A stretch of 64,000 nt of DNA from Bacteroidales bacterium UBA5219 (GCA_002412425.1 DHVB01000062.1:1815-65814); one strand, 5' to 3'. Positions 1 through 19,623 are shown, counted from the stretch's first letter. Numbers and translations are program-made. Notes: generated by a model from the sequence alone, not told the origin.

Positions 1-1
1 T

Positions 2-970
2 ATTGACGAGCCTATCCCTGTTGTTGTAACCACATCCAAATTATTGAGTACAGGCGTTGATGTTCCAACTTGTAAAATCATTGTGCTTTTCCGAATGGTC
101 AACTCTATGACCGAGTTTAAACAAATTGTTGGTAGAGGTACAAGAGTAAGAGAAGACAAGGAAAAACTATTTTTCACCATTCTTGACTATACAGGAAGTG
201 CAACAAGAAACTTTGCCGACCCTGATTTTGATGGTGAACCACCATTAATCACCGAAGATGAAATTGATGATGATGGAAACATAATTGACGGTGATGAATT
301 GGTGCCAGATGATGCCGACACAGGTGATGAAGATTGGGAAGATGAAGACAATGAAGATGATGAGCCACCAACAGGCGGTGAAACAGGTGGTGAACCAAGA
401 AGAAAATACTACATCAGCGAAGGCGAAGTAAGTATTGCAGCGGAGAGTGTTCAAATATTAGACGCGAATGGAAAACTTCGCACTATTCAATTTACACAAT
501 ACGCAAAGGAGCAGATCACTACTCTCTTCCCATCAATAAATGAGTTTAAATCAAAATGGAACAATCTTGAAGAACGTAAACACATTCTTGAAGAGCTTGA
601 AAATAATGGTGTATCAGTAGACCAACTAATGGAGATAACCAGAAACAAAGACGCTGACCCATTTGACTTACTCTGCTTTGTTGCTTTCGATTTGAAACCG
701 CTTACTCGTAAACAACGAGCAGATTTACTGAAAAAGAACAAACCTGACTTGTTTCAAGACCTAAGCGAGAAAGCAAAAGATGTTTTGAACCTTATTTTGG
801 AAAAATATGTGGAATATGGGCCAAATCAATTGAGACCTGATATTATTTCAGTTGACCCAATATCAGAAAAAGGGAACGCTTACGAAATCGTGAATGAATT
901 TGGCGGAATTGACCAATTCAAAAAAATAATAGAAGAAATACAAACCCTGCTTTATGCAGATGCAGCTTAA
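2..970 (+). CDS. hsdR: Type I restriction endonuclease R subunit (HsdR), C-terminal part; 5' end outside window
   Basis: The frame of the 44..970 ORF stays open to the window edge. It has helicase C-terminal motifs (TSKLLSTGVDVP, QIVGRGTRV), then an acidic linker and an EcoEI-type R C-terminal region. Its stop lies 9 nt before the hsdM start. Confidence 0.9.
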   Translation: MDEPIPVVVTTSKLLSTGVDVPTCKIIVLFRMVNSMTEFKQIVGRGTRVREDKEKLFFTILDYTGSATRNFADPDFDGEPPLITEDEIDDDGNIIDGDELVPDDADTGDEDWEDEDNEDDEPPTGGETGGEPRRKYYISEGEVSIAAESVQILDANGKLRTIQFTQYAKEQITTLFPSINEFKSKWNNLEERKHILEELENNGVSVDQLMEITRNKDADPFDLLCFVAFDLKPLTRKQRADLLKKNKPDLFQDLSEKAKDVLNLILEKYVEYGPNQLRPDIISVDPISEKGNAYEIVNEFGGIDQFKKIIEEIQTLLYADAA

Positions 971-979
971 AAGTAAATT

Positions 980-3121
980 ATGGCAAAGACCAAAAAGACA
1001 AAATCAGTAAAACAAGAAACACCAGCTCAAAGGCTATCAGGTATTATCAAAAGTTGTCGCCAAATCATGCGAAAAGACAAAGGCATGAACGGAGATGCGG
1101 ACAGACTACCAATGTTGACTTGGATAATGTTCTTAAAGTTCTTGGATGACAATGAGCAAATGCAAGAAGTAAATGCACAGCTTGAAGGTAAGAAATATAA
1201 ACCTGCAATAGAATCCCCTTATAGATGGCGCGATTGGGCAAAAGATACCAATCTAACAGGTGACGACCTGCTTAATTTCATCAGTAATGAGAAAGTTACT
1301 CTCTCTGACGGTAAAGAAAGAACAGGTTTATTTTACTATTTAAGGAGCTTACAAAGCGAAAGTGGAACGGAACGCAAAGACGTCATTGCAACGGCATTTA
1401 AAGGAATTAGCAACCGCATGATAAATGGGTACTTGCTAAGAGATGTAGTAAATAAAATTGACGGCATTCATTTCACAAATAACGAAGAAATAAATACGCT
1501 TTCGCACTTGTACGAAAGCATCTTGAAGGAAATGAGAGATGCAAGCGGTGATGCAGGTGAATTTTATACACCAAGACCAGTGGTGCGTTTCATGGTTGAA
1601 ATGCTAGCCCCTAAAATTGGTGAAACTGTTTTAGACCCCGCTTCAGGTACAGGTGGGTTCTTAGTTGAAGCCTTTGACTATTTGAAAAAACAGGCTAAAA
1701 CCGTAGAACAGAGACAAACATTACAAAGGAATTCCATTGTTGGAGGTGAACCAAAGTCATTACCCTTTCTGCTTTGTCAAATGAACTTGCTTTTGCATGG
1801 TCTTGAGTATCCAAATATTGATAGCGGTAACAGCCTTCGGTTTCCATTAAAAGACATTGGCGATTCTGAACGTGTAGATGTTATTCTTACCAATCCACCA
1901 TTCGGGGGTGAAGAAGAGAGAGGGATTCTAAACAATTTCCCGAATGATAAGCGAACAGCAGAAACTGCCTTGCTCTTTTTGCAATTGATAATGCGAAAGT
2001 TGAAAAGGAAAAAACCAAATTCAGATGGTGGTCGAGCCGCAGTAGTTGTTCCAAACTCAACTTTGGCAGGAAACGGCATCACAGGCAGAATTTTAAAACA
2101 GCTTATTTCTGATTTCAACCTACATACCGTTGTTCGTCTTGGAGAAGGCGTTTTCGCACCATACACTGACATTCCTTCAAATTTAATTTTCTTCGATACA
2201 ACTAAAAAAACTGATACTGTTTGGTTTTATGAAGTACCAATTCCAAAGGGGAAAAAGAAATACAGTAAATCAAAACCACTTAAATCAGATGAACTAGAAA
2301 AAGTTAAAAAATGGTGGAACAAAAGAGAAGAAAGTGAGAACTCATGGAGTGTCAAGGTTGCCGAATTAGTTCAATCCGAAGATGAAAAAATTGACTTAGA
2401 CCTTAGGAATCCGAATAAAGTAGACCCTTATGAAAATTTGGATGCTAATCTTCTAATCACAAAAGTTAGAGAAGCCATCACGCAAAATCTTGCCTTAATT
2501 ACTCAAATACAAAATGAAATTAGTAATTCTTTGACTGTTAAAACTGTTAGCTTATCTACAGCAATAGAAGAAAGCACTGATTCTGTAGAAGTGAATCCCA
2601 CCGTAATGTATAATTTTGCAGGTGTTTACGGATTTGGGAAAGGACTTTTTAAGCGAGAACCACTTTCAGGTAGCAATACTTCATACAAATCATTTCACAG
2701 GCTACACAAAGATGAAATTGTCATTAGTAAAGTAAAGGGATGGGAAGGCGCTATTGCATTGATTACAGAGGAATTTGATGGATTGTATCTATCTTCTCAA
2801 TATCCGACTTTTAAGGCTAAAGAAGGAGTCAACATTAAATACATAGCTGAGTATTGCAAACACCCTAGAGTTTGGCAGGAACTGCTAGATAAATCAAAAG
2901 GCATAGGTGCAAGAAGAAATTCAATTTCAGTTGACACTTTTTTATCGTTGAAAATCCCGTTACCAGAGTTGGAAGAGCAAGACAAAATTGTAGATGCACT
3001 TGAGAAACTTTCAGAATTGAAGAGAAAGCAATCAGAGCTGAACAAATCACTTGAATTGCTCACGCCAGCAATTTTGGAAACAGCTTTCAATTCTAAACCA
3101 GTTGAAGAAGTAGAAGTATGA
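980..3121 (+). CDS. hsdM: Type I N6-adenine DNA methyltransferase (HsdM) fused to one HsdS-type target recognition domain
   Basis: HsdM N-terminal region (LPMLTWIMFLKFLDD), AdoMet motif DPASGTGGFL and catalytic motif NPPFGG. Residues ~540-713 look like one HsdS TRD plus the conserved helix (LPLPELEEQDKIVDALEKL). There is no stand-alone hsdS in the window. Confidence 0.85.
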   Translation: MAKTKKTKSVKQETPAQRLSGIIKSCRQIMRKDKGMNGDADRLPMLTWIMFLKFLDDNEQMQEVNAQLEGKKYKPAIESPYRWRDWAKDTNLTGDDLLNFISNEKVTLSDGKERTGLFYYLRSLQSESGTERKDVIATAFKGISNRMINGYLLRDVVNKIDGIHFTNNEEINTLSHLYESILKEMRDASGDAGEFYTPRPVVRFMVEMLAPKIGETVLDPASGTGGFLVEAFDYLKKQAKTVEQRQTLQRNSIVGGEPKSLPFLLCQMNLLLHGLEYPNIDSGNSLRFPLKDIGDSERVDVILTNPPFGGEEERGILNNFPNDKRTAETALLFLQLIMRKLKRKKPNSDGGRAAVVVPNSTLAGNGITGRILKQLISDFNLHTVVRLGEGVFAPYTDIPSNLIFFDTTKKTDTVWFYEVPIPKGKKKYSKSKPLKSDELEKVKKWWNKREESENSWSVKVAELVQSEDEKIDLDLRNPNKVDPYENLDANLLITKVREAITQNLALITQIQNEISNSLTVKTVSLSTAIEESTDSVEVNPTVMYNFAGVYGFGKGLFKREPLSGSNTSYKSFHRLHKDEIVISKVKGWEGAIALITEEFDGLYLSSQYPTFKAKEGVNIKYIAEYCKHPRVWQELLDKSKGIGARRNSISVDTFLSLKIPLPELEEQDKIVDALEKLSELKRKQSELNKSLELLTPAILETAFNSKPVEEVEV

Positions 3122-3678
3122 AACCCAAACCATTAACAGCAATTCTATTATTCATAAGTGCTTACTCGCCTTTGTTTTTGATATTGGCAGTAAAGGATTT
3201 TGATTTCTATTGCAGTTACAGTTTTGGGCATCCAGTAGCCATTTCAATCCTTCTTGGCTTATCAGCATTGAGTGTAATACTGCTATTCGTAACTATAGGC
3301 TCAATTAAAAGAGGAAATATGCCTGTTACTGTGAAAGCAGTTAAAAACCGTTCGGTTGATTTAATTAACTACACAATCCCTTACATCGTTTCATTTTTTG
3401 GTTTTGACCTTGCGAAGGTTGAAGACATTATTTCGCTTTCAATATTCCTTTTGTTGCTTTTGCTTCTCACAATAAAAAGCAAGTCTGTATTCATGAACCC
3501 AATCCTACTTTTAGCAGGCTATAATCTTTACGATTTGGAATATGAATATGATGGCAAGCCAACTTCAACAATCGTAATTAGCAAGCATGAAATGAAAGCA
3601 GGAGAAAGATTTTACATAAGGAGCTTAACCCGCTTCTTGTACTTTGTAACAGAAAAAGAGACCACAAATGCCCAATAG
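3118..3678 (+). CDS. Small ~4-TM membrane protein, KwaA-like (candidate Kiwa component)
   Basis: ATGA start/stop overlap with hsdM. Four hydrophobic helices by eye (res ~6-25, 38-60, 82-96, 103-119) plus a soluble tail. The CDS call is strong; the Kiwa assignment rests only on architecture and gene pairing. Confidence 0.6.
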   Translation: MKPKPLTAILLFISAYSPLFLILAVKDFDFYCSYSFGHPVAISILLGLSALSVILLFVTIGSIKRGNMPVTVKAVKNRSVDLINYTIPYIVSFFGFDLAKVEDIISLSIFLLLLLLLTIKSKSVFMNPILLLAGYNLYDLEYEYDGKPTSTIVISKHEMKAGERFYIRSLTRFLYFVTEKETTNAQ

Positions 3679-4624
3679 ACAAAGACAAACGCTAAGACAA
3701 TTAAAAGACCTTGATTTAAGAGGGGCTAATGTGACATTGGCTGTTGTAAAAGAATACAAAAGAGACAGAGTTTCTCAGTACACGGTCAAATACGTTCCAA
3801 TTGACCAAAGACTTGAAACCAGACTAAGAAATATCGTTGTAAACCACATCAACAATTCAAACACAGTTGAAGAATACACCTATGATTGTCCTGAACCCGA
3901 AGAAGACCAGGTAAGGGCTATCAGTTATGAAGAAACTGACTTTTACAGAATATTTGAGCAGCTCGAAGATTTAAACCCAGAGGAAGATATTATTGAGGAT
4001 GTAGAAGAACTTGTAAAGTCCAAAGCCTACATGATAATTCTTCGGAATGCAGAAGGCATTCAAGTTGTCGGTTTCAAAACCCTGCCTGAGAATTGGAGAA
4101 TGAAACGAAACAAAGGTTTGATTCCCCTTTTGTACAACGAAAACCGATTTGAAGATTTAGAACAGGACAACGTTTTCAGTATTTCAAGCATTGTCGACCT
4201 TTTCTATTTTAATGAGTTTCTGTTCATTCTTTCCAAGAAAGATTTTGAAAGAGGCTTGAACTTCCGTGAAGGCATGATTAACAATGCGAACGAACTATAT
4301 CAGGAAGTTACTCAGTTGAACATTTTCGTGAATATGGAAATTCTGACTGACCGAGTTGGAAACAATCAGCGCTACTTAAGGAAAATTGCGACAATCAGAA
4401 ATTTAGGCCATTATAGAAATCCTGTTTACTTGCAGAGATTACAGCAACTAATTGTAACTAAAGGATGGAACATCCAATTTGAAGAAGAACAAATTGTAAT
4501 AACGGACGAGACACTTGACGATATTTTGACTTTGCTTCAAAACAAACGGCTTCATTCAGAATTAACCGAAGAAGATTTTGATGTGGAAAGTACAAAACCA
4601 GTAAACCCCAACGCAAACTTGTAA
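3668..4624 (+). CDS. 318-aa soluble protein, KwaB/DUF4868-like (candidate Kiwa component)
   Basis: 11-nt overlap with the upstream membrane-protein gene. Its size (~315 aa) and its pairing with a small multi-TM protein fit Kiwa. The central region VFSISSIVDLFYFNEFLFILSKKDFERGLNF resembles my recollection of DUF4868; this is not verified by a search. Confidence 0.55.
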   Translation: MPNRQRQTLRQLKDLDLRGANVTLAVVKEYKRDRVSQYTVKYVPIDQRLETRLRNIVVNHINNSNTVEEYTYDCPEPEEDQVRAISYEETDFYRIFEQLEDLNPEEDIIEDVEELVKSKAYMIILRNAEGIQVVGFKTLPENWRMKRNKGLIPLLYNENRFEDLEQDNVFSISSIVDLFYFNEFLFILSKKDFERGLNFREGMINNANELYQEVTQLNIFVNMEILTDRVGNNQRYLRKIATIRNLGHYRNPVYLQRLQQLIVTKGWNIQFEEEQIVITDETLDDILTLLQNKRLHSELTEEDFDVESTKPVNPNANL

Positions 4625-4779
4625 GCACATTTGCAGGTCACACAAAGCCACCGCTCGACCAAAACCTGTAAAAGAGCTTCCAAGTCCCTGCCCGATAAAA
4701 GAGAAATTTTAAGAATGCCCCAATACAAGGAAGATATGAGAATTACCATTGAAATATCGAGAGATGAAGAAGCACGATT

Positions 4780-4913
4780 GCCTAACAGCGTGTATGTGGC
4801 AATAGCGGGTGAAGAGGTAAATCGAAGGTCTATGCTTCTAAGAAACTTTGTGCAAAACGGACAGGAAAGTGCTTCTAATCCGCTACTGCACATACACGCA
4901 AAACGTTACCAGC
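4780..4913 (+). repeat. attC-like imperfect palindrome 0
   Basis: Left box GCCTAAC (4780-4786, fits RYYYAAC). The stem 4788-4808 pairs with 4880-4899 (20 bp, one bulged G4799, one A4802/C4886 mismatch). The loop is ~71 nt. Right box G4905|TTACCAGC. Confidence 0.65.
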
Positions 4914-4933
4914 AATTAGAGTGAAAACAAATT

Positions 4934-5851
4934 ATGAAAGAATATTTCAACTTACAAATAAAATTAATCGGTCGCAAATTTCGAGAAATAGGATTGCATC
5001 CGATTTTAGCTATAATTTTGTTAATGGTAGCTTTAATCGCGTTATCAATTTATGCTTATAAAAAAACGGAATTTGCTCCTTATATTCTTTCATTTCTTGC
5101 ATTATCTTTTATAATGAAATTGTCAGAAGTAAAACGAAATGAATTCCTTAAAACTATTTTTAAATCTAATGAACATATCAAAATCAGGATAATTGAAAAT
5201 TTAATTTTAACTATTCCATTTTTAATCATTCTATTGTTTTTTTATTCTTATTTTGAAGCATCTCTATTACTCTTGATTTCTATAATTTTCGCTATTAAAA
5301 GTATGAAGTCAGATTATAAATTTACGATACCTACACCCTATTTTAAAAAACCTTTTGAATTCACTATTGGATTTAGAAAAACTTTCTATTTAATTCCATT
5401 GGCATATATTCTTACAGTAATTTCAATTTCCGTAAACAATTTTAATTTAGGAATCTTTTCATTTTTACTCGTTTTCGTTGTTTATTTCTCCTATTATTTC
5501 AAACCAGAAGAGGAATATTTTGTTTGGTCATTCGATGCTAATCCAAAATCATTTTTGTTGTATAAAATTAAAACAGCATTAATGCAATCAACCTACTTCG
5601 TTTTGCCAATTGCTTTAACACTTTCCTATTTTTATCTTTCGGAAATCCTACTCGTTTTACTATTTCTAATTATTGGATACACTTTTCTTATATTTTTTAT
5701 CGTGGCTAAATATTCCACATATCCAGATGAAATAGGAATCGTTCAAGGAATCATTTTAGCACTTAGCATTTTCTTTCCTCCAATATTGTTAATGATTATT
5801 CCGTTATTATTTAACCAGTCTCAAAAACGTTTAAATTACTTGTTACAATGA
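4934..5851 (+). CDS. Polytopic membrane protein, probable permease partner of the downstream ABC ATPase
   Basis: 305 aa, very hydrophobic (about 8 helices by eye). ATGA overlap with the ATPase gene at 5848-5851. Confidence 0.7.
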   Translation: MKEYFNLQIKLIGRKFREIGLHPILAIILLMVALIALSIYAYKKTEFAPYILSFLALSFIMKLSEVKRNEFLKTIFKSNEHIKIRIIENLILTIPFLIILLFFYSYFEASLLLLISIIFAIKSMKSDYKFTIPTPYFKKPFEFTIGFRKTFYLIPLAYILTVISISVNNFNLGIFSFLLVFVVYFSYYFKPEEEYFVWSFDANPKSFLLYKIKTALMQSTYFVLPIALTLSYFYLSEILLVLLFLIIGYTFLIFFIVAKYSTYPDEIGIVQGIILALSIFFPPILLMIIPLLFNQSQKRLNYLLQ

Positions 5852-6528
5852 TTGAAATAAAAGATTTAACAAAAAAGTATGGCGATAAAATAGTTTTAAA
5901 AAATATTAACTTGCAATTTAACAAAGGCAAAGTGTATGGAATCGTTGGCGAAAATGGAGCAGGTAAAACGACATTATTTAGATGTATTTCGGGGTTAGAA
6001 AAATACGATGGAGAAATAAAATCGGAACTTAATCCGTTAAAAAATTATATTGGTTTATTGCTTACGAATCCGTATTTCTTTACAAGAATTACTGGACGAG
6101 AGTATTTGCAATTACTATGCAATGCAAGAAAGATTAAAATTGAAGATTTTGAAAAACAAAATATTTTTAATTTGCCATTAAATCAATATGCTTCTACCTA
6201 TTCGACAGGTATGAAAAAGAAATTGGCTATTACTGCCATTTTATTACAAAAAAATAAAGTTTTTATTCTTGATGAACCCTATAATGGCGTCGATATTCAA
6301 AGTAATTTAATAATTACTGAGCTCATTTTAGAATTGAAAAAGTTGAATAAAACTTTAATAATATCATCACATATTTTCTCTACATTGAATGATACTTGTG
6401 ATGAAATTCACTTATTAGAGAAAGGTGAATTAATTAAAACGGTGCAAAAGGAAGATTTTAAAAAATTAGAAGAAGAAATGAAAACAACAGCAATAGGAAA
6501 TAAGGTAAAAAAAATGAACTTAAAATAA
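5848..6528 (+). CDS. ABC transporter ATP-binding protein
   Basis: Walker A GENGAGKTT, signature-like YSTGMKKKL, Walker B VFILDEP. Confidence 0.9.
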   Translation: MIEIKDLTKKYGDKIVLKNINLQFNKGKVYGIVGENGAGKTTLFRCISGLEKYDGEIKSELNPLKNYIGLLLTNPYFFTRITGREYLQLLCNARKIKIEDFEKQNIFNLPLNQYASTYSTGMKKKLAITAILLQKNKVFILDEPYNGVDIQSNLIITELILELKKLNKTLIISSHIFSTLNDTCDEIHLLEKGELIKTVQKEDFKKLEEEMKTTAIGNKVKKMNLK

Positions 6529-6532
6529 AAAA

Positions 6533-6670
6533 GCTGGTAACAAGTCGTTTTACGTCAGGCGGGTTAATCACTTCGTTTCAAAGTTTTTCGTATATTTGAA
6601 CTTTGGTGCTTCGGTTCAAAATTTATGGTAAAGAACCCGCCCGAACGCAAAGCGCCGAAGCGTTCTCGGC
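6533..6670 (+). repeat. attC-like imperfect palindrome 1
   Basis: Left box GCTGGTAAC (6533-6541) begins 5 nt after the ABC stop. The inner clamp 6558-6565 pairs with 6634-6641, with an A6557/C6642 mismatch. The stem extends with a bulge to about 6544/6656. The loop is ~68 nt. Right box G6662|TTCTCGGC. Confidence 0.6.
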
Positions 6671-6695
6671 AATTTATAAACAAAAAACAAATACT

Positions 6696-8654
6696 ATGAA
6701 AAAAACACTGTTATTTGGATTAAGCATGTTAATATGCTTATTAAGTATTTCACAAGAATTACCTCAGTATGCACCTGGACAAATAATAGTTAAGGTCAAG
6801 GGCGATTTGTCTAAAACTTGTGAAAATATTGTCAACCAAGTCCCCACAAAATCAGGGAATGAATTGATTGTAAAAGATTCAATTCTTCAAAAATTCGGTA
6901 TATATAAAATAGAATCCTTGCATTATTTTGATGAGTCTAAAAAAACTTTGTTGAAAAGTGGATCGGAAAAAACATTTGTTTTCTATACCAATGAGACAGA
7001 TTTACCTCAACTAATTGAAAATATTAAAAAAACACCTGATGTAGAAGATGCTTATTTTAACTTTTTATTTATTTCTCATGTTGAACCTGATGATGACAAA
7101 TATGATGATCAATGGTCATTGCCCAAAATAAGTATGCCAGAAGCATGGGATATTCAGAAAGGATGTACAGATTTAAAAATTGCCATACTTGACGTGGGTT
7201 TTAGAGATTTGGAACATAATGATGTAGATGATAAATTTCTGTCAACAAGAAGAGATGAAACAGATATTGATGTCAGTTCATATACAAATAATGGATATTC
7301 AACTGTATCAGGAGAGGATTATACAACACCTGATGATAATCCAGAGGGAGAAAGTTTTCATGGCTTACAGGTTTCAGGTGTTGCTGCTGCAGAAACTAAC
7401 AATAATAAAGGTATAGCCGGAGTTGGATGGGATATTTATATTGTACCTGTCAGATGTGGTTTTACGATTAAGTATTTCGGACAGGAATATGGTCTATTTG
7501 AAATGGATGATATAATACGTGCAATTGATTGGGTAGTTGCAGGTAACAGAGCAAGAGTTATTAATATGAGTTTGGGAGGAATTGCTCCAACAGGAAATGC
7601 CCTTATTGAATATGAAAATTCATTGGAAGCTGCTTATAATAGCGGAATTGTTATTGTTGCATCAAGTGGTAACGACAACAATAATCAAGCTTCTTACCCT
7701 GCTTCATCTCAATTTACAATAGCCGTTGGCGCATCAAATGAGAATGATAATCGTGCAAGTTTTTCAAATTATGGACAAGATTTAGATATTATTGCTCCCG
7801 GAATAAATATTCTTACAGTAAATAGAAAACTAGTTAATCAATATAAAGAAGTTGATGGTACTTCATTCTCTGCTCCTATTGTATCAGGAATTACTGCACT
7901 TATTTTATCTCAAAATCCTGAATTAAATCCCGAACAAGTTAGAGATATATTAAATGAGAGTGCAGACGAGGTAAGTGGCATGAGTGGTCAAAACTTTCAT
8001 GTTGAATATGGTTTTGGTAGAGTAAATGCTAAAAAAGCATTAGAATTTGTGCCAGAAATAAAATATGATATTACTCTAAATAATGAAGTGATTACAGATT
8101 TACAAATTGTTCATGCACAAAACTCCATTACTGCTTCAAATTATTCAGTTGAACCAGGAGCAACGGTAATATTTAAAGCAGGAAATTCCATACATTTAAC
8201 AAATGGATTCCATGCTAAAGCAGGTTCAAATTTTCACGCCTATATTGATGACGTAGGCGTTTCCTGTTCTTCTAAATCATTAAAATCGGGGGAAACGGCA
8301 GGTAATGATACTATTACAAATGACGGAATAATTAAGGAAGAAGAAAATTTGAACAGTAACACTATACCGACCAACGTCATTACATCAGAATCCATGAATA
8401 TAATAGTATTTCCTAATCCTTTTTCAGACAAGGCAACAATACAATTTGAAATAGGAACGAATCCTCAAATAGTTAACATTTATATTAATGACTTGATTGG
8501 CAGAACAATAAAAACAATAGTCAAATCAAACAACAATCCCAATGGAAAATATTCAGTTGATTTTAATTTATCAGGATTTAAACAAGGGATATACTTTGTT
8601 ATTTTAGAAATTGATAAACAGAAATATACTCGTAAAATAATATACAAACACTAA
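6696..8654 (+). CDS. Secreted subtilisin-family (S8) serine peptidase with T9SS C-terminal sorting domain
   Basis: The start is placed at M32 of the 6603 ORF, where a signal peptide begins (MKKTLLFGLSMLICLLSISQ). Catalytic motifs are AILDVGF (D), HGLQVSGVAAA (H) and GTSFSAPIVSG (S). The C-terminus (VFPNPFSDKATIQFE...GIYFVILEI) is typical of a Por/T9SS sorting domain. Confidence 0.9.
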   Translation: MKKTLLFGLSMLICLLSISQELPQYAPGQIIVKVKGDLSKTCENIVNQVPTKSGNELIVKDSILQKFGIYKIESLHYFDESKKTLLKSGSEKTFVFYTNETDLPQLIENIKKTPDVEDAYFNFLFISHVEPDDDKYDDQWSLPKISMPEAWDIQKGCTDLKIAILDVGFRDLEHNDVDDKFLSTRRDETDIDVSSYTNNGYSTVSGEDYTTPDDNPEGESFHGLQVSGVAAAETNNNKGIAGVGWDIYIVPVRCGFTIKYFGQEYGLFEMDDIIRAIDWVVAGNRARVINMSLGGIAPTGNALIEYENSLEAAYNSGIVIVASSGNDNNNQASYPASSQFTIAVGASNENDNRASFSNYGQDLDIIAPGINILTVNRKLVNQYKEVDGTSFSAPIVSGITALILSQNPELNPEQVRDILNESADEVSGMSGQNFHVEYGFGRVNAKKALEFVPEIKYDITLNNEVITDLQIVHAQNSITASNYSVEPGATVIFKAGNSIHLTNGFHAKAGSNFHAYIDDVGVSCSSKSLKSGETAGNDTITNDGIIKEEENLNSNTIPTNVITSESMNIIVFPNPFSDKATIQFEIGTNPQIVNIYINDLIGRTIKTIVKSNNNPNGKYSVDFNLSGFKQGIYFVILEIDKQKYTRKIIYKH

Positions 8655-8666
8655 ATTGACCATTAT

Positions 8667-9257
8667 ATGAAAAAAACCGCATTTACATATTTTATTTTGT
8701 TTCTTATTTCTCTAAATGTCCTTGCTCAAAAAGTAGATAAAAATAATTTCAGTTTAGGTCTTTTTATTGGCGAGGGAACAGGAGTCTTAACAGATTTTAG
8801 TATTAATGATAAATTTGGAATTGAGTGGAATATATCCTATAATGAAATGTTTTATAAATACAGATATACAAACAAATATTCAGATTTTATAAATCAAAAA
8901 TATAACAATATATATAGCTCATCTCTTTTATTAAATTACAGAAACAAATTTATGAATAATAACAAATTAGATTATCATTTTGCTATCGGCAGCCAAATGA
9001 GGATTATTACTGATTTTTATCAGGGAATACCTGTTTTGACACCTCCAAATACTATAATTATTGTTGACCCAACAACAAAAAATAAAATAGATATAGGTAT
9101 TAGTTTATTGATGGGTACTGAATATTGTTTGACTGAAAACATTTCCGTATTCTTTGACTTAGGGACATATATTGAAATAACAGATATTTTTTTATGGTCA
9201 AATTTTCAATTTAGAACAGGATTAATGTATCGTATAAATTATAAAAAGAAAGAATAA
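8667..9257 (+). CDS. Putative outer-membrane beta-barrel protein
   Basis: Signal peptide MKKTAFTYFILFLISLNVLAQ. Alternating aromatic/polar pattern, 196 aa. No recognisable enzyme motifs. Confidence 0.6.
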   Translation: MKKTAFTYFILFLISLNVLAQKVDKNNFSLGLFIGEGTGVLTDFSINDKFGIEWNISYNEMFYKYRYTNKYSDFINQKYNNIYSSSLLLNYRNKFMNNNKLDYHFAIGSQMRIITDFYQGIPVLTPPNTIIIVDPTTKNKIDIGISLLMGTEYCLTENISVFFDLGTYIEITDIFLWSNFQFRTGLMYRINYKKKE

Positions 9258-9260
9258 ACA

Positions 9261-9397
9261 GCCGAGAACAGCAGCTACACGCAAGTGGGGGTTCAGTGCT
9301 TCTATGAAAGTGAAGTGCCAAATCAAAGTTCTGTACTTTTAATGGAGTTCAGTGCTAAAAATCCCCACCTGCGTGTAGCTGCCAACCGTTAGCCAAC
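9261..9397 (+). repeat. attC-like imperfect palindrome 2
   Basis: Left box GCCGAGAAC (9261-9269) begins 4 nt after the stop at 9257. The stem 9271-9290 pairs with 9363-9382 (19/20, with an A9284/C9369 mismatch). The loop is ~72 nt. Right box G9388|TTAGCCAAC. Confidence 0.65.
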
Positions 9398-9642
9398 ATA
9401 TTACAATACGCACCCTTAGTAAAAAAATCGATTTATCCAAATTTTTCATCAAAAATATTTTGTGGTTTGATTTATTATTATTATCATTGCATTATCATTT
9501 CATATCTTATGAAAATTAGGTGTAGTAATATTGTTGTTTTTACTGCTTTTCAACCCAATCCTCTAAAAATAAGCAAATCCACACTAATTTTTTTTGATGA
9601 TTTTAATTCAGCTTTTATTTATTCTCTTAAAAATTAAATATT

Positions 9643-9747
9643 ATGAAAAGAAAACTTTACATGCTAGTATTATTTATGTTTGCTTTCTATTTAGGAGATG
9701 CACAAAGTAATATTATTACTACTACAACAATAGTAAAGTGTTTTTAA
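9643..9747 (+). CDS. Orphan signal-peptide ORF (N-terminus of the downstream S8 peptidase, out of frame)
   Basis: An ATG at 9643 encodes MKRKLYMLVLFMFAFYLGDAQSNIITTTTIVKCF*. The stop lies immediately after a T5 run (9741-9745). One extra T would fuse it to the 9738..12632 frame. Confidence 0.6.
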   Translation: MKRKLYMLVLFMFAFYLGDAQSNIITTTTIVKCF

Positions 9748-12632
9748 ATCTTGACAATTCTAGTGTAACATTAATAACAGAAAATGATTTTCAGAAAAGT
9801 TCTGTTAGTACATTAAATTTTAAAGAATTCAATTTAGAACAAGAAAGTCCAAGTGCTAATTATAAATATTCTAATATTGAATTTCAACAAATACCATCTT
9901 CTGTAGAATATTTTCAAAAAATAAATTTATTAAATTCTAACGCTAAAATAATAAAAGCAAATCCAAATTTCACTAACTCCTTTGGTAAAAAATTTGGATT
10001 ATCAAATTATTTTTATGTAAAATTAAAAAACGCTTCTGATTATCAATTATTGGTTTCAAAAGTATTAGAGAGAAATGTAATTATTGTAGAACAAAATCAA
10101 TTTATGCCGTTATGGTATACATTGAAAATTACTAAAAATACTATTGGAAATACTTTAGAAGTTGCAAATCAATTTTTTGAAACTGGACTATTTGCTTCTA
10201 GTCAGCCTGATTTCCTTTCAGATGATAGATTTTGTAGTAATGACCCAATGTTTGGAAGTTTGTGGGGATTAAATAACACCTCAAACACAAATCATGATAT
10301 AAATATTTGTCAAGCTTGGAATATAACACAGGGAGCCAATGTCAATGTAGCAGTATTAGATCAAGGCATTTTTAAAACACATATTGATTTATATTCAAAT
10401 ATTCATCCATTAAGTTATAACACTGAAACAAACACAAGTCCAAGTCAATTATTTGGTGACCATGGAACGCATTGTGCAGGAACAATAGCAGCAATAAAAG
10501 ATAATAATATTCAGGTTGTTGGAGTATCGCCGTTATCAAAACTTATGGATATTAGTAATTCATTAGCAGGAACTCCAAATAGTAGAATGAAAAGAGCTGA
10601 TGGTATTAATTGGGCTTGGCAAAATGGGGCTGATATTATTAGCAATTCATGGGGGTCTGGCGTGCAATATCAAGTTATTGATGATGCAATAAATAATGCT
10701 CTACAAAATGGAAGAAATGGTAAAGGTACTATAATTGTTTTTGCAACTGGAAACAACAATAATTCAGTCAGCTACCCAGCTAATTCAAATCCAAGTATTC
10801 TTTCTGTTGGTGCAATGACATCTAGTGGTACCAGGTCTAGTTTTTCTAATTATGGAACACAGCTTGATGTTGTTGCTCCTGGAAGTAACATTCTATCAAC
10901 AGTACCAAATAATCAAACTGCAAGTTGGGATGGTACATCAATGGCAACTCCACACGTAGCAGGAGTGGCTGCTTTAATACTTTCCGTAAATCCTTACTTA
11001 TCAGCACAGCAAGTAAGTGATATAATAGAGCAAACTGCTCAAAAAGTTGGAGGTTATGATTACCAAAACCAGCCTAATAGACCAAATGGTACGTGGCACG
11101 AACAAATGGGCTATGGTTTAGTTGATGCCTATGCTGCAGTGAAATTGGCGCAAAATATGTATTCTACAACTTTAGATTTATACATAAAGGACAAACCTGA
11201 TGATATGGGAATTGAACCTAATCCGAACACACAGCTTATGTGGACAAGTAAAGACATATGGATAAGGAATAACGATGACGGTGGATTAACACATCAAAAT
11301 CCTGAATATAGAAGCAATGGAAGTCCAAACTATATTTATGTAAGGATAATTAATAAGAGTAGTGTGCCATCAACAGGTAATGAAATATTAAATCTTAATT
11401 GGGCTAAAGCAAGTACTGCTCTTATTTGGCCTCAAAATTGGGATGGTAGTTTACAAAATTCCGCTGGTTATAACTTAGGTGGCGCCTTTCCTATTTCAAC
11501 AATACCCGTTTTGCAACCTGGCAACGAAACAATAGTTAAAATACCTTGGGTAGTTCCAAATCCCAGTAACTATTCAGACAATAACGAGCCATGGCACTTT
11601 TGTTTATTGGCAAGAATAGATGGTATAGGAGACCCTTTACAGCCAGTATTATCGTCAATAAATGAAATGGCAATAAACGATAATAATGTTGCTTGGACAA
11701 ATATCACAATTGTAGATTTAGAAACAGAAATAACAGGAGCAAGTGTTTTGGTTGCCAACCCATCACAGATACAAAGAACTTTCTTTTTGGAATTACACAA
11801 AGAGGTAAATGAAAGCGGAAAGGCTATTTTTAATGAAGCCGAAGTAAGCCTAAAAATGGATGATGTTTTATATAGTGCATGGGAAAGAGGTGGAAAAATT
11901 GCACAAAAATTAGCTCCAACACAAGAAGAAAAACGAAAATTGGTTAAAGGTGATAATGTTATATTAGACAATATTGCCTTTAATTCAAATGAAATGGGCT
12001 TACTAACTTTAGACTTTAATTTTTTGATAAAAGAGTTAACAGATAAAGACGAATATACCTACCACGTAGTGCAAAAAGATGCTAACACAGGCGAAGTATT
12101 AGGTGGTGAAACTTTTATTATCAGAAAAAGTTCAAGACAGACTTTTGTAGCCGATGCAGGCGATGATAAAGAAGTTGCAAAAAATGAAACCATTACTATA
12201 AGTGCAAAAGATATAAATGAACCTGCGGTTTACAATTGGTATGACAGTAAAGGTGATTTAATTTATCAAGGAAAAGATTTAACCGTTACGGCAGATGTGG
12301 TAGAGAAATATAAACTTGAAGTCATTGCAACTACCGATGGTTTTAAAGATTATGCAAGCATAGGAGTTAAATTTAAACCCAATATCATTGAAAGTATATC
12401 GCCAAATCCTGCTTTAGATAATATTGTAGTAAATTACAAGATAAACGAAGCAAGCTCTGCGTATTTAATGGTCTTAGGATATTACGGAAGTGGCACATCG
12501 TACAATTATATCTTAGATGTCAATTTACAAGAAATACAAATTAACACAAGCAGCTATCAAAATGGATTTTATACTGTTGCTTTAGTTTGTGATGGAGAAA
12601 TTGCAGATGCCAAAACATTATTAAAACAATAA
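9738..12632 (+). CDS. Subtilisin-family (S8) serine peptidase with T9SS C-terminal sorting domain; apparent frameshift removes its signal peptide
   Basis: Catalytic motifs VAVLDQGI (D), HGTHCAGTIAA (H) and GTSMATPHVAGVAAL (S). The C-terminal ISPNPALDNIVVNYK...GFYTVALVCDG is T9SS CTD-like. As listed, the ORF starts at a GTG with no signal peptide. Confidence 0.85.
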   Translation: MFLNLDNSSVTLITENDFQKSSVSTLNFKEFNLEQESPSANYKYSNIEFQQIPSSVEYFQKINLLNSNAKIIKANPNFTNSFGKKFGLSNYFYVKLKNASDYQLLVSKVLERNVIIVEQNQFMPLWYTLKITKNTIGNTLEVANQFFETGLFASSQPDFLSDDRFCSNDPMFGSLWGLNNTSNTNHDINICQAWNITQGANVNVAVLDQGIFKTHIDLYSNIHPLSYNTETNTSPSQLFGDHGTHCAGTIAAIKDNNIQVVGVSPLSKLMDISNSLAGTPNSRMKRADGINWAWQNGADIISNSWGSGVQYQVIDDAINNALQNGRNGKGTIIVFATGNNNNSVSYPANSNPSILSVGAMTSSGTRSSFSNYGTQLDVVAPGSNILSTVPNNQTASWDGTSMATPHVAGVAALILSVNPYLSAQQVSDIIEQTAQKVGGYDYQNQPNRPNGTWHEQMGYGLVDAYAAVKLAQNMYSTTLDLYIKDKPDDMGIEPNPNTQLMWTSKDIWIRNNDDGGLTHQNPEYRSNGSPNYIYVRIINKSSVPSTGNEILNLNWAKASTALIWPQNWDGSLQNSAGYNLGGAFPISTIPVLQPGNETIVKIPWVVPNPSNYSDNNEPWHFCLLARIDGIGDPLQPVLSSINEMAINDNNVAWTNITIVDLETEITGASVLVANPSQIQRTFFLELHKEVNESGKAIFNEAEVSLKMDDVLYSAWERGGKIAQKLAPTQEEKRKLVKGDNVILDNIAFNSNEMGLLTLDFNFLIKELTDKDEYTYHVVQKDANTGEVLGGETFIIRKSSRQTFVADAGDDKEVAKNETITISAKDINEPAVYNWYDSKGDLIYQGKDLTVTADVVEKYKLEVIATTDGFKDYASIGVKFKPNIIESISPNPALDNIVVNYKINEASSAYLMVLGYYGSGTSYNYILDVNLQEIQINTSSYQNGFYTVALVCDGEIADAKTLLKQ

Positions 12633-12661
12633 CATTTCATAACATTTTAAATACAAATATC

Positions 12662-13138
12662 ATGAAGTCAAAAATAATTATAATTTTAATCCTTGGTTCG
12701 TTTCTTTTAATAAACTTTGGTTGCGAAAAAAACGCAGGTGACGATTCTACTCATAGTACATATCCGATAGATATTAGTTTTACTGAAATTGGAAAAGGAG
12801 CATTGTATGGTAATGGAGCAGAGAATATTCCACAACAGAATATTGTTATTACAAATCAAACACAATTCAATGATTTAATTAATTCTATGAATACTGTAAA
12901 TAATGTTTCAAACTCATTCACTGAAACAAGTATTGATTTTAATACATATCAAATTATTGCCGTTTTTAAGGAAGTAAAACCAACAAGTTGGAAAGTTGAA
13001 ATAACCAGTGTTATTGAAAATGCAGAAAACATTACTATTTTAATAATTGAAACTGAAAATGAAAGTACAGTGATAACCCAACCCTTTCACATAGTTAAAA
13101 TTCCAAAGACAACAAAACCAATAGTATTTGAACAATAG
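12662..13138 (+). CDS. Small lipoprotein, PrcB-like (protease-complex partner family)
   Basis: Lipobox LLINFGC. The C-terminal part (YQIIAVFKEVKPTSWKVEITSV...VITQPFHIVKIPK) matches my recollection of the PrcB_C domain found next to subtilisin-type proteases. It sits directly downstream of an S8 peptidase. Confidence 0.55.
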   Translation: MKSKIIIILILGSFLLINFGCEKNAGDDSTHSTYPIDISFTEIGKGALYGNGAENIPQQNIVITNQTQFNDLINSMNTVNNVSNSFTETSIDFNTYQIIAVFKEVKPTSWKVEITSVIENAENITILIIETENESTVITQPFHIVKIPKTTKPIVFEQ

Positions 13139-13144
13139 ATATAC

Positions 13145-13280
13145 GTTGGATAACAATGTATAAACACAATAGCGGGCAAATTGCAAATTTTAATATCCGA
13201 ACTTTGCTTTAATATCTTGCAAGATTTGAATGTTGGTGTTTCAAAGTCCGCTACTGTGTTTATACTAAATCGTTATGGAG
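13145..13280 (+). repeat. attC-like imperfect palindrome 3 (last in array)
   Basis: Left box GTTGGATAAC (13145-13154) begins 7 nt after the stop at 13138. The stem 13158-13175 pairs with 13248-13265 (17/18, with an A13169/C13254 mismatch). The loop is ~70 nt. Right box G13272|TTATGGAG. Confidence 0.65.
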
Positions 13281-13433
13281 ATTATTTGTAAAAATGAGCA
13301 AGACAACTTAGTTGATTTAAAAAGTGAAAACGACATTGTTGTAACACTTAAAAAAATAGAAAAATAACTATTTATACTGTTAAAAGGGAAATGGTAAAAG
13401 TCGAACCGAGCTTGCGAACTCACCGAAGGTAAA

Positions 13434-13531
13434 GTTAAAAGTGGTCTGCGGGTTTGGCTTTTCTTTATGAACTTTTTACTTTATAAACTTTCAACTGAAT
13501 TTATTGTATTGCAAATAATGCGAAAAACAGG
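13434..13531 (+). repeat. Dispersed intergenic repeat, copy 1
   Basis: About 80 nt (13434-13512) align at roughly 80-85% with 26645-26722. The tail GCGAAAAACAGG (13520-13531) matches 26862-26873. Confidence 0.7.
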
Positions 13532-13703
13532 ATTTTGCTACATAAAAATTTCAAAATACGCTTTTAAATGCACAAATAAAAAGAGTGTTTGTTGATTTGT
13601 TTTTAAAACATTTAAGCACATAAACATAAATTTTATAATATTTGATTTTCTAAAATATTAAAAATTACTTCACAAAATTCTATAAAAAATTAGAAAACTA
13701 CAT

Positions 13704-13711
13704 TATCTTTG
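13704..13711 (+). promoter_or_regulatory. Bacteroidota -7 promoter box TATCTTTG (TAnnTTTG)
   Basis: Exact consensus match with an 8-nt gap to the ATG at 13720. Confidence 0.45.
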
Positions 13712-13719
13712 ACTAAAAT

Positions 13720-14391
13720 ATGAAAAAAACTTACTTCTTTATATTGCTTTTATGTGTAACTAAACTAAGTCTTTCGCAATCAGACAGTTTGGTTAAGTGC
13801 GATTTTAGTTTTGAATTTAAACCTGGTTTGTATTTGCAGTTTTCAGATTTTAGAAGCAATTCGCCAATTCCTTTTGAATCAGTTGTTTACCCAGATTATT
13901 CTCATAAAGATTTTTATTATAATTTAGATACTGCAAAAACCATAATCTTTAACGATAAACACGGTTTGCTTATCAAAAAACAAATATCTGAAGTTTGGGG
14001 ATTTTCTAAAAATGGAAAACCATATATTTATTGGTCTAACAAAGCAAATTTAATTCCTTTTGTAGGTTCTATTTCTCATTTTATTACAACAATTAATACA
14101 ATTCGCCATATAAGTCCAGAACCTTATTATGGTTCTTATTACTACAATCCTTACTATTATTCGCCACCAATGTCGAGAACCTATCAAACCGAAGAATTAA
14201 AACAATTTATAATTGATATGGAAACTGGAAATATTCTTGAATATAGTGTGAAAAATGTAGAATCAATATTAAAACGAGAGCCACAAATTTATGATGAATT
14301 TTCAAAATTAAGGAAAAGAAAAAAGACTAAACAACTGTTTTATTACGTTAGACTTTATAACGAAAAACGAGTTTTAATGATGAATGAGTAA
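13720..14391 (+). CDS. Hypothetical secreted protein
   Basis: Signal peptide MKKTYFFILLLCVTKLSLSQ. 223 aa, no recognisable motifs. Confidence 0.7.
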   Translation: MKKTYFFILLLCVTKLSLSQSDSLVKCDFSFEFKPGLYLQFSDFRSNSPIPFESVVYPDYSHKDFYYNLDTAKTIIFNDKHGLLIKKQISEVWGFSKNGKPYIYWSNKANLIPFVGSISHFITTINTIRHISPEPYYGSYYYNPYYYSPPMSRTYQTEELKQFIIDMETGNILEYSVKNVESILKREPQIYDEFSKLRKRKKTKQLFYYVRLYNEKRVLMMNE

Positions 14392-14411
14392 ATTTTTAAA
14401 AACCATGTATA

Positions 14412-15269
14412 ATGTTAAGATTAGTAATTTTTATTTTTTTAATTAACTCCTATTTAATAGGTTTTGCACAAATTAATATTTCTCGCGGAAGTCAAGCAGA
14501 AATCAATACTTTTTTAAACTCAAAAACTTATATTGTACTAAACAACACATTAATGTCTGACTACAATATGGAAATGAAAGAAGCCATCTTAAAACATTGG
14601 ACAATAACAGATTACGAGTTTATTACTGAATCAGAGTTTAAAAAACACAAATCAAATCCTAAAAATTCTTTTTTGATGATAAACCAAGTTTATTTTGAAA
14701 AAGACAAAACACAAACATTGTTTGATTTTTTAATTTTATGTTTAGGTGGAAATTACAAAACCGTAAACGACATGCCAACTCTTTGTGCCATACCGCTTTG
14801 CTATCATGGTGCTTTGCAAGAAGCATATGCTTATAAATTAGGATTAATGGTAAAATTCACTCAATTACATATAAAAACTTGCAAAAATAATCCAACTATA
14901 AGCGAGGATAAATTAGCAGAATATTATATGAATAAAACAGGTAGTCCTAAAACCAAAACTTTTTATTTATTAAAAGAAGAAGTTGAACCTGAAATTAGAA
15001 CAAAAAATTCTTTTGCTACAGCATATCCATTTAATTTTGAATATGCAGACAAAGAAAAAATTAAAAACTTAATTGACAACAATGATGAAGATGCAATAAT
15101 CCTACATATTTTAGGACCACAAACAAGCAACACACTTTCTTACTGTATAAAAATAATTATTGACACTCAGGAAGGCAATATTTATTATTACGACATGCAC
15201 AAACTGAGCAATAAAAATGCAGACAGATTATTAAAAAGCGATTTAAAGAAATTAGCAAGTAAAAAATGA
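14412..15269 (+). CDS. Hypothetical secreted protein
   Basis: N-terminal signal-like segment MLRLVIFIFLINSYLIGFAQ. 285 aa. The stop overlaps the folC start. Confidence 0.7.
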   Translation: MLRLVIFIFLINSYLIGFAQINISRGSQAEINTFLNSKTYIVLNNTLMSDYNMEMKEAILKHWTITDYEFITESEFKKHKSNPKNSFLMINQVYFEKDKTQTLFDFLILCLGGNYKTVNDMPTLCAIPLCYHGALQEAYAYKLGLMVKFTQLHIKTCKNNPTISEDKLAEYYMNKTGSPKTKTFYLLKEEVEPEIRTKNSFATAYPFNFEYADKEKIKNLIDNNDEDAIILHILGPQTSNTLSYCIKIIIDTQEGNIYYYDMHKLSNKNADRLLKSDLKKLASKK

Positions 15270-16564: not shown

Positions 16565-16591
16565 AGTTTTACGAATTGATATATATTTATA

Positions 16592-16599
16592 TATTTTTG
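16592..16599 (+). promoter_or_regulatory. -7 promoter box TATTTTTG
   Basis: TAnnTTTG match 19 nt upstream of the GTG start at 16619. Confidence 0.4.
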
Positions 16600-16618
16600 C
16601 AAAAATAAAAAAAACGAA

Positions 16619-19555: not shown

Positions 19556-19623
19556 AAATTATAATAAAAAAAACAAAATAAACGTTTTATTTTACAGCAT
19601 AATTAATCATAAACTTCAACAAT

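Follow-up and report, generated by a model that had tools for sequence, protein, structure and literature searches.

A type I restriction-modification and Kiwa operon as probable first cassette of an integron-like array in an uncultured Bacteroidales bacterium

When a set of defence genes lies beside a recombination site, is it a passenger of that site, or ordinary DNA that happens to adjoin it? The question is raised by the left end of a 64,000-nt stretch of DNA, here called the window, from Bacteroidales bacterium UBA5219 (GCA_002412425.1, DHVB01000062.1:1815-65814), an uncultured bacterium of anaerobic digesters. Its RpoB is 99% identical to that of metagenome-assembled genomes labelled 'Bacteroidales bacterium' and 'Bacteroidetes bacterium ADurb.Bin028'. 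Here a type I restriction-modification (R-M) operon, continuous with a Kiwa operon, runs from the left edge to a long palindrome, site A ('site 0' when first noticed). The initial annotation left two readings: either the whole operon is one giant defence cassette that starts beyond the left edge, or the palindrome is a remnant at the edge of an array, with unrelated DNA next to it. The first reading is correct: positions 1-4913 are the 3' three-quarters of a single 6,644-bp cassette together with its recombination site. The array to which it belongs is chromosomal, and it is very probably integron-like, that is, composed of a recombinase gene, an attI-like site and hairpin-bounded cassettes, of which the R-M/Kiwa operon is the first.

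The box motifs of site A are found as first described, with one exception. The heptamer GCCTAAC of the left box occurs once in the window (4780-4786, + strand), its partner GTTAGGC nowhere, and no other palindrome of the family lies to the left of site A: the covariance model described below finds none in 1-4777. The bare hexamer TTAGGC, also said to be absent from 1-4779, does occur there, once, at 4403 inside kwaB. Alone, both motifs are at chance level in the window (GCCTAAC, one match with 3.7 expected; TTAGGC, 17 matches with 25.5 expected); taken whole, site A is highly significant (Table 1).

The boundaries of the cassette emerge from other contigs, found by exact look-up of the HsdM-S protein. 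One of these, a 30-kb contig from another sample (L001), overlaps the window's own source contig (L003) by 14.9 kb and agrees with it at every base of this overlap, of which 1.8 kb lies upstream of window position 1. The order in L001 is a gene for a UpxY-like NusG paralogue (291-812), a recombinase gene on the same strand (838-1875), a 184-nt spacer, the junction ...GGTATAAACAA|GTTAGGCAACATGC and, 300 nt further on, hsdR, which is complete at 2360-4768. This first cassette junction is at 2059; its box, GTTAGGCAA, seen in identical contigs from other samples, is 1,739 nt upstream of window position 1, and is the exact complement (9/9) of the site A left box, TTGCCTAAC. Three more contigs (L004, L005 and L006) carry the operon at 99.96-100% identity but behind a different cassette, one with RnlA-like, RNase HII-like and tetratricopeptide repeat genes, which ends in a site of its own (...CCGCCACTGCGCCAAGCGCCAACCC|GTTAGGCAACATGC); directly 3' of the operon they have other DNA, after ...CACGCAAAAC GTT|GTATGC. 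Between L001, where the operon stands on the integrase side, and L004, where it stands behind another site, identity begins exactly at GTTAGGCAAC; at the other end, the window and L004 diverge exactly after the GTT at 4905-4907. Homology thus starts and stops inside the same GTT triplets, and the operon is therefore one cassette of 6,644 bp. The G|TTAGGC box that had been missing is found at its start, and the remnant reading is refuted by recurrence of the same cassette in other arrays with breakpoints at GTT.

The same contig settles where the integrase is. The array had been expected to be either a cluster in which attC sites stand without integron-integrases (CALIN) or one whose intI lies upstream of position 1. 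In L001 the integrase is 1.9-3.0 kb upstream of that position; as a recombinase gene stands 184 nt ahead of the first cassette, this is no CALIN, and it looks like one because the window's contig breaks there. Upstream integrase, attI-like site and GTTAGGC box were all among the features to be looked for and are all present; on the other hand, the gene is not divergently oriented, nor does its product carry the IntI-specific insertion, as had been expected too. The genome-wide intI hidden Markov model search suggested at that time would wrongly have spoken against an upstream integrase, as this recombinase scores under the cutoff of the IntI model.

The first gene calls in this cassette are borne out by Pfam and PADLOC matches (Table 1). 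HsdR, HsdM and HsdS are encoded together, as in known type I R-M systems, and kwaA and kwaB (DUF4868) are adjacent, as in Kiwa; all the defining genes of both are thus here, next to each other and in one operon, as shown by gaps of 9 nt or overlaps between hsdR, hsdMS, kwaA and kwaB. The overlaps of the hsdMS stop with the kwaA start, and of the kwaA end with the kwaB start, make R-M and Kiwa translationally coupled. Two things set the operon apart from known examples: both systems share one transcription unit, packaged as one recombination cassette; and HsdM and HsdS are a single polypeptide whose HsdS part is one target-recognition domain, which implies a symmetric target if HsdM-S dimerises. 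KwaA reaches 62.7 bits against the NCBIfam KwaA model, under the cutoff of 100; as KwaA and KwaB both fall under the NCBIfam equivalog cutoffs but match PADLOC subfamily models strongly, this is a divergent Kiwa subtype. A phase-variable hsdS shufflon driven by the adjacent recombinase was considered and rejected: hsdS is present neither in a second copy nor as an inverted fragment, and arrays accompany the recombinase family whatever their cargo. Open reading frames (ORFs) called across hairpin sites are probably spurious: those at 4631-4924 (+), 4552-4893 (-) and 6603-6695, of which two have 97 aa and 113 aa, and calls of 62/68 aa in related contigs.

Table 1. Cassettes, genes and recombination sites of the array, in window coordinates
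Feature	Position	Strand	Evidence and remarks
Cassette 1, window part	1-4905	+	full length 6,644 bp; starts at TT of GTTAGGCAA (L001 2060); ends at G of GTT 4905
hsdR, 3' part (final 322 codons; whole type I restriction subunit 802 aa)	2-970	+	Pfam EcoEI_R_C 4.8e-28, Helicase_C; PADLOC REase_I 3.7e-68
hsdM-hsdS fusion, 713 aa	980-3121	+	N6_Mtase 2.3e-61, HsdM_N, Methylase_S (residues 562-685); PADLOC MTase_I 2.2e-173, Specificity_I
kwaA, 186 aa, start overlapping hsdMS stop	3118-3678	+	PADLOC KwaA PDLC00215 3.6e-55; Pfam PF28043 on record
kwaB, 318 aa, DUF4868, start overlapping kwaA end	3668-4624	+	Pfam KwaB 1.1e-32; PADLOC KwaB PDLC00235 9.5e-116
Site A ('site 0')	4778-4913	+	99 bits, E 1.7e-21; left box TTGCCTAAC, AAC 4784-4786; GTT 4905-4907
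Cassette 2: 305-aa membrane-like ORF (4934-5851), ABC-type ATPase (5848-6528)	4906-6662	+	ABC_tran 1.6e-23
Site A2	6533-6670	+	65.6 bits, E 1.3e-13; AAC 6539-6541, GTT 6662-6664
Cassette 3: S8 subtilase with type IX secretion system (T9SS) sorting domain (6696-8654), 196-aa ORF (8667-9257)	6663-9388	+	Peptidase_S8 8.1e-49, Por_Secre_tail
Site B	9261-9396	+	114 bits, E 4.3e-25; AAC 9267-9269, GTT 9388-9390
Cassette 4: 964-aa S8 subtilase (9738-12632), 158-aa ORF (12662-13138)	9389-13272	+	Peptidase_S8 1e-57
Site C, last of array	13146-13280	+	82.9 bits, E 1.1e-17; AAC 13152-13154, GTT 13272-13274

What kind of site bounds such a cassette? The window holds four cassettes and four sites, the latter all on the + strand, as delimited with a covariance model built from an alignment of 31 sites of the window and of distant genomes. 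The sites follow one plan: a box ending in AAC, one unpaired A, a covarying stem of ~20 bp, a loop of ~65 nt, the return arm, 4-5 unpaired nt and GTT. In site A a 124-nt imperfect hairpin extends from AAC (4784) to GTT (4907), with stem arms at ~4787-4808 and ~4880-4899 and the layout TTGCCTAAC-A-GCGTGTATGTGGCAATAGCGG ... CCGCTACTGCACATACACGC-AAAAC-GTTACCAGC. Beyond AACA...CGTT the four window sites have little sequence in common. In the 31 sites, standard pairs occupy 90% of pair cells, a share that drops to 31-36% if the 3' partners are shifted by 1-3 columns; compensatory changes, on both sides, are seen in 17 of 20 stem pairs; the covariation score is 0.675, as against 0.06-0.13 in the shifted controls. 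Site length stays within 120-127 nt, and AACA and CGTT are invariant. So is a mismatch within the stem, A/C as read here and G-T, a wobble, on the bottom strand. Folded as long hairpins, the window sites give z-scores of -2.3 to -6.4 on both strands, except for the top strand of A2 (-0.5).

Simpler detectors do not suffice, and the covariance model was needed: a generic inverted-repeat scan found B and C but missed A and A2, and a scan for AAC, stem and GTT missed A2. By eye, the left half of the attC consensus RYYYAAC/GTTRRRY fits site A only, and the other left boxes (TGGTAAC, CGAGAAC and GGATAAC) do not fit it. From 13280 up to 64000 the covariance model finds no site at a significant score; at E<=1 the rest of the 64 kb yields one partial match (46054-46121, 17.6 bits, E 0.025). 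Rfam, run on 1-20000 at E<=1, gives nothing relevant, the DUF1874 candidate attC motif of PMC5737381 included.

The loops have a regularity of their own. In many of these ~65-nt segments, direct repeats recur every ~18.5 nt (autocorrelation maxima at shifts of 19 and 37, z = 6.6 and 10), and a motif GT[GAT][CG][TC] recurs in many sites at loop positions ~5, 24, 42 and 61. Examples are window 9291-9366 and sites in L014, L028, L029, L033 and L045; sites of the L055 type, and window sites A and C, have no clear motif. Such loop repeats are not known from classical attC sites; they could serve for accessory binding, perhaps of the recombinase through its N-terminal domain.

Successive sites are related through their boxes. 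The right box of site A (GTTACCAGC) and the left box of A2 (GCTGGTAAC) are complementary at 9/9 positions, the right box of A2 (GTTCTCGGC) and the left box of B (GCCGAGAAC) likewise at 9/9, and the right box of B (GTTAGCCAA) and the left box of C (TTGGATAAC) at 8/9; the same complementarity runs along an array of 14 sites in another genome (L055). Exchange inside GTT implies that, at the 5' end, every cassette brings along TT and 6 nt from its own right box.

Natural variants show that exchange inside GTT adds, removes and re-orders cassettes. In contigs found through the cassette-2 ORF, cassette 3 is precisely absent from three (L090, L091 and L094): position 6664 is joined to 9391, reading ...GAAGCGTT|AGCCAAC. 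In L090, moreover, other cassettes precede cassette 2, joined to it at the GTT of the preceding site, and the chromosomal genes downstream are those of the window. A further contig (L095) diverges right after the GTT of site B and has a different cassette there. For the attI-like junction, and for every window site but C, one or more natural variants break precisely at GTT. The cassette that follows site B in L095 (4647-5375) encodes a 242-aa metallo-beta-lactamase-fold protein with a weak Pfam match to the phage Anti-Pycsar protein Apyc1; the array may thus store a gene of counter-defence type, or one for degrading cyclic nucleotides.

The enzyme that adjoins these sites is a 345-aa tyrosine recombinase, encoded on the cassette strand, with its stop codon 184 nt before the first junction (L001). 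The catalytic R, K, H, R, H and Y are invariant in sets of 16 and 30 homologues. It belongs to the NCBI family named 'site-specific tyrosine recombinase/integron integrase' and passes the NCBIfam 'XerA / integron integrase' model (223.9 bits, cutoff 220), but not the IntI model TIGR02249 (195 bits, cutoff 265, with the match split in two) or PRK15417 (112 bits, cutoff 435). XerA is the best sequence match among solved structures (5hxy, 1.1e-43), followed by IntI4 (3.6e-33); Foldseek, given the AF2 model (pLDDT 81.6), returns the same two in the same order (9e-17 and 4.5e-15). Alignment to VchIntIA (2A3V, IntI4) leaves chain residues 189-242 uncovered, with only 12 query residues there, and the AF2 model has no extra helix at the place of the IntI insertion. 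The uncovered segment is reported (MacDonald et al. 2006) to comprise the I2 helix and the residues that grip extrahelical bases. The IntI-specific additional domain around patch III, by which integron integrases are recognized, is therefore absent.

The AF2 model does contain an N-terminal domain of beta-beta-alpha-beta-beta-alpha fold (residues 1-55, L001 838-1002), which is conserved and carries the motif GARWS...K.WHLP. Its likenesses are weak and non-significant: to the HARP domain of SMARCAL1 (Foldseek E 0.098), to Pfam HARP in 5 of 16 members (best E 0.036) and to DUF5710 in 10 of 16 (best E 0.0018). Searched as a profile against PDB sequences, the domain had no match. HARP domains recognise junctions of single- and double-stranded DNA, a property that would fit hairpin sites.

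The insertion site next to the gene is recurrent as well. In L001 the attI-like junction consists of an imperfect hairpin of ~60 nt followed by TATAAACAA and G|TT. A box complementary to the left box of the first site lies 57-184 nt (broadly ~100 nt) past the recombinase stop codon in 29 of 33 loci, and the junction is preceded by a ~60-nt imperfect hairpin and TATAaAcaA. Thus a recombinase gene adjoins the array, with an attI-type insertion site between the two.

How general is the arrangement? A scan of species-representative genomes yielded at least 587 stretches with the recombinase family, of which 80 loci were kept (L007-L086), all from Bacteroidota and Ignavibacteriota; in databases, the family has more than 8,000 relatives at 60-72% identity in Flavobacteriales, Sphingobacteriales, Cytophagales, Chitinophagales and Chlorobi/Ignavibacteria. 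At E<=0.01 the site model has 103 matches in 81 loci: 101 on the recombinase strand, the other two being reverse-strand echoes. Two of the 101 are in L004, a stretch without a recombinase gene. The remaining 99, in the 80 recombinase loci, are all downstream of the gene, with none in 580 kb of upstream flank, although the downstream flank amounts to only 256 kb. Among the loci examined, then, the site family is exclusively linked to the recombinase family. One locus (L055) has 14 consecutive single-ORF cassettes starting ~100 nt past the recombinase, and a complete 66-kb Chryseobacterium plasmid, from an isolate, carries the recombinase and six sites. In the plasmid of Chryseobacterium sp. SNU WT5 (NZ_CP041688.1; L107, 18296-22078) an IS110 transposase gene and a group II intron reverse transcriptase gene are inserted in the array, antisense to the cassettes; in classical integrons, attC sites are known targets of group IIC introns, which would make a parallel.

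Contigs end within 1.5 kb of the recombinase gene more often downstream (42 of 80) than upstream (7 of 80). This is what variable, repeat-containing arrays would produce, and is also why the window's contig stops in the attI-like hairpin; surveys based on metagenome-assembled genomes, with assemblies breaking after the recombinase gene, must systematically lose the arrays.

The median spacing of sites is ~0.95 kb (interquartile range 0.7-1.9 kb, 76 spacings), with six of the 76 above 4 kb; a spacing sets the upper limit of cassette size. Cassette 1 ranks with the largest. It is found, with its site, in numerous arrays and samples: HsdM-S at >=90% identity occurs in 278 index blocks of the collection, with NCBI labels of Marinilabiliaceae and Bacteroidetes ADurb.Bin174. 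In six of eight further contigs the same site comes after it, in various arrays and beside other multi-gene defence cassettes, one of them a 5.1-kb unit of helix-turn-helix, N6_N4 methyltransferase and ResIII genes; in L097 and L098 no site was detected after kwaB. Secreted enzymes seem to be a second class of cargo besides defence. Of the four cassettes in the window, two encode S8 subtilases, one of which ends in a T9SS sorting domain, and T9SS-secreted proteins are found in other arrays, for example at L033 11532-14073. In cassette 3, a 683-aa subtilase ORF would begin with a TTG inside site A2; the real start is probably the ATG at 6696, as called in L002.

Downstream of site C come non-cassette genes, an ATP synthase operon and ribosomal genes. 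The 445-nt non-coding stretch that directly follows the site (13275-13719), with a G+C-richer part at ~13400-13460 (gtcgaaccgagcttgcgaactcaccgaagg...) in a window of ~30% G+C, has no Rfam match; in the ancestral state it would have flanked the attI-like site on the right.

By analogy with IntI and attC, the neighbouring recombinase would catalyse exchange between attI-like site and cassette site, and between two cassette sites, on folded single-stranded hairpins. The recombining strand would probably be the bottom one, on which a G-T wobble takes the place of the invariant mismatch. Excision would yield circular cassettes, and re-insertion would take place at the attI-like site; the junction of the cassette 1 circle would read ...CACGCAAAACG|TTAGGCAACATGC, alias ...CACATACACGCAAAACG|TTAGGCAACATGCTAAAAG. 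Co-orientation of the cassettes and, in this lineage, the UpxY-like antiterminator may allow read-through expression of a hairpin-rich array. The gene in question, for a NusG paralogue of UpxY/LoaP/RfaH type ~3.0-3.5 kb upstream of window position 1 (UpxY model 5.9e-16, under cutoff), is the first of the co-oriented unit, ahead of recombinase and cassettes. It was rejected as a general component of the system: tblastn places it upstream of the recombinase in two of 80 other loci (L059 and L056), and it is therefore lineage-specific.

An alternative perspective supposes a canonical integron, or a CALIN: the sites would be ordinary attC sites served by a true IntI encoded elsewhere, and the adjacent recombinase a bystander. 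The sites do have attC logic (an imperfect palindrome, ...AAC and GTT... boxes, crossover in GTT), and the NCBI name of the recombinase family includes 'integron integrase'. But a bystander would not be expected to have all 99 site matches in 80 loci just downstream of its gene, or an attI-like junction at a fixed distance from its stop codon; the recombinase itself falls under the IntI cutoff and lacks the insertion; and surveys with IntegronFinder report almost no integrons in Bacteroidetes (PMC9024848). We regard this account as very improbable.

Another possibility, which appears just as remote, is that the cassettes are Xer/dif-type modules moved by the housekeeping XerC/D-like enzyme of the window, in the way that Xer-mediated movement has been proposed for pdif modules on Acinetobacter plasmids. 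Such an enzyme is indeed encoded at 60078-60965, where the initial annotation rightly placed a recombinase in a housekeeping context: it is of XerC/D type (XerC model, 315 bits) and sits beside rpoBC and a ribosomal-protein block. No other tyrosine recombinase was found among the window ORFs scanned, which lie outside the rpoBC/ribosomal block at 45.8-59.6 kb. The array recombinase, with XerA as its best structural match, is itself Xer-related. However, the Xer gene is 47 kb from the array; the sites are 124-nt covarying hairpins and not 28-bp dif-like sequences, and hairpin sites of 120-127 nt form the module boundaries; and the sites are strictly linked to a dedicated recombinase with an attI-like site of its own.

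Least probable of all is that the hairpins are intergenic repeats of the repetitive extragenic palindromic or terminator type, or RNA elements, with cassette-like variation produced by homologous recombination from repeat to repeat, and with the R-M/Kiwa genes as ordinary neighbouring DNA (the second of the initial readings): they lie 3' of operons, where they could terminate transcription, and both strands fold, but every breakpoint falls within the same 3 nt of sites that share little else, homologous exchange leaves the 9-nt box complementarity of successive sites unexplained, all sites point the same way and lie to the same side of the recombinase gene, and none is matched by an Rfam family.

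The integron-like array thus remains the preferred reading, and several points weigh against it. The evidence is computational throughout, and circles and recombinase activity are inferred by analogy. The 31 sites were first picked by a scan that demanded AAC, a stem and GTT, so stem pairing and the invariance of AAC and GTT are partly built in; the scan criteria did not extend to the A and C flanking the boxes in AACA and CGTT, to the A/C mismatch, to the uniform length, to the placement with respect to the recombinase or to the box complementarity. Both DNA strands fold about equally well in silico, and the energies favour neither. The integrase is seen only in L001, from another sample, as the window's own contig stops inside the attI-like hairpin. 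Cassette 1, with its 300-nt leader, may carry its own promoter, and the UpxY-like gene stands ahead of the recombinase in only three lineages. Finally, the recombinase is without an insertion reported as necessary for IntI activity (Messier & Roy 2001, as cited in PMC2426708 and PMC9668308), and so may work by a mechanism other than that of IntI.

A broader proposal, on which the evidence seems to us evenly poised, is that Bacteroidota and Ignavibacteriota, both regarded as nearly free of integrons, carry a widespread and undescribed second class of integron. Its recombinase would be of the Xer/IntI branch without the IntI insertion, perhaps using the small N-terminal domain (possibly HARP-like and junction-sensing) and the loop repeats to act on folded sites of ~124 nt; its arrays would routinely capture multi-gene defence operons, and would have spread between taxa and onto plasmids. 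No earlier description of this recombinase/site system was found in the full-text literature searched, which did not cover subscription journals. Should the recombinase prove active, hairpin sites can be recombined by a route other than the IntI insertion, which bears on the evolution of integrons from Xer. Gut, aquatic and digester Bacteroidota would then hold a large unexplored pool of cassettes, with defence systems, T9SS-secreted enzymes and possibly counter-defence. Whole multi-gene defence systems could travel as single site-specific cassettes, and the size limits assumed for integron cargo would need revising.

How, then, does the array compare with known systems? With chromosomal integrons it shares a tyrosine recombinase of the Xer/IntI branch beside an insertion site; co-oriented cassettes, each ending in an imperfect palindrome with ...AAC and GTT... 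boxes; sites that vary in sequence while compensatory changes keep their structure; and accessory cargo that includes defence genes. The crossover again lies inside GTT, so that the right box belongs to the next cassette, and, as in attC-type structured sites, the right box is complementary to the next left box. Archaeal integrons share a further feature, an intI gene co-oriented with the cassettes and an attI just downstream of it (PMC9668308).

The differences lie in enzyme, sites, cargo and hosts. Unlike IntI, the recombinase has no IntI-specific insertion and has an extra N-terminal domain of ~55 aa. Unlike classical attC sites, those described here hardly vary in length (120-127 nt) within an entire phylum; boxes are complementary over 9 bp; the internal loop measures 1 x 4-5 nt; in place of the classical extrahelical bases there is an invariant A/C mismatch; and many loops carry four direct repeats ~18.5 nt apart. 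A preprint on integron defence systems describes mostly streamlined ones, without mention of Kiwa, and counts Bacteroidota among clades earlier found to lack integrons; here, in contrast, multi-gene cassettes of 4-7 kb occur, and the hosts are Bacteroidota and Ignavibacteriota. In Bacteroidetes, IntegronFinder 2 detected only In0 elements and one complete integron (PMC9024848).

The other relatives are the Xer resolvases. XerA is the best match of the recombinase core and, as in XerA and XerC-XerD, the catalytic domain has no insertion. Xer enzymes act on one short dif site per replicon, whereas here the gene is followed by arrays of hairpin sites, the protein has the extra N-terminal domain, and a separate Xer gene is encoded elsewhere in the window. 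The IntI-specific domain has served as a filter in integron surveys (PMC2426708, PMC9668308), which also rely on a curated attC model, and Smyshlyaev et al. consider the insertion essential for integron function, though not fully conserved within the subgroup (PMC8138268). Functionally the system is an integron whose recombinase lacks the additional domain that defines IntI, and arrays of this kind would escape the current definition of integrons despite following the same cassette logic.

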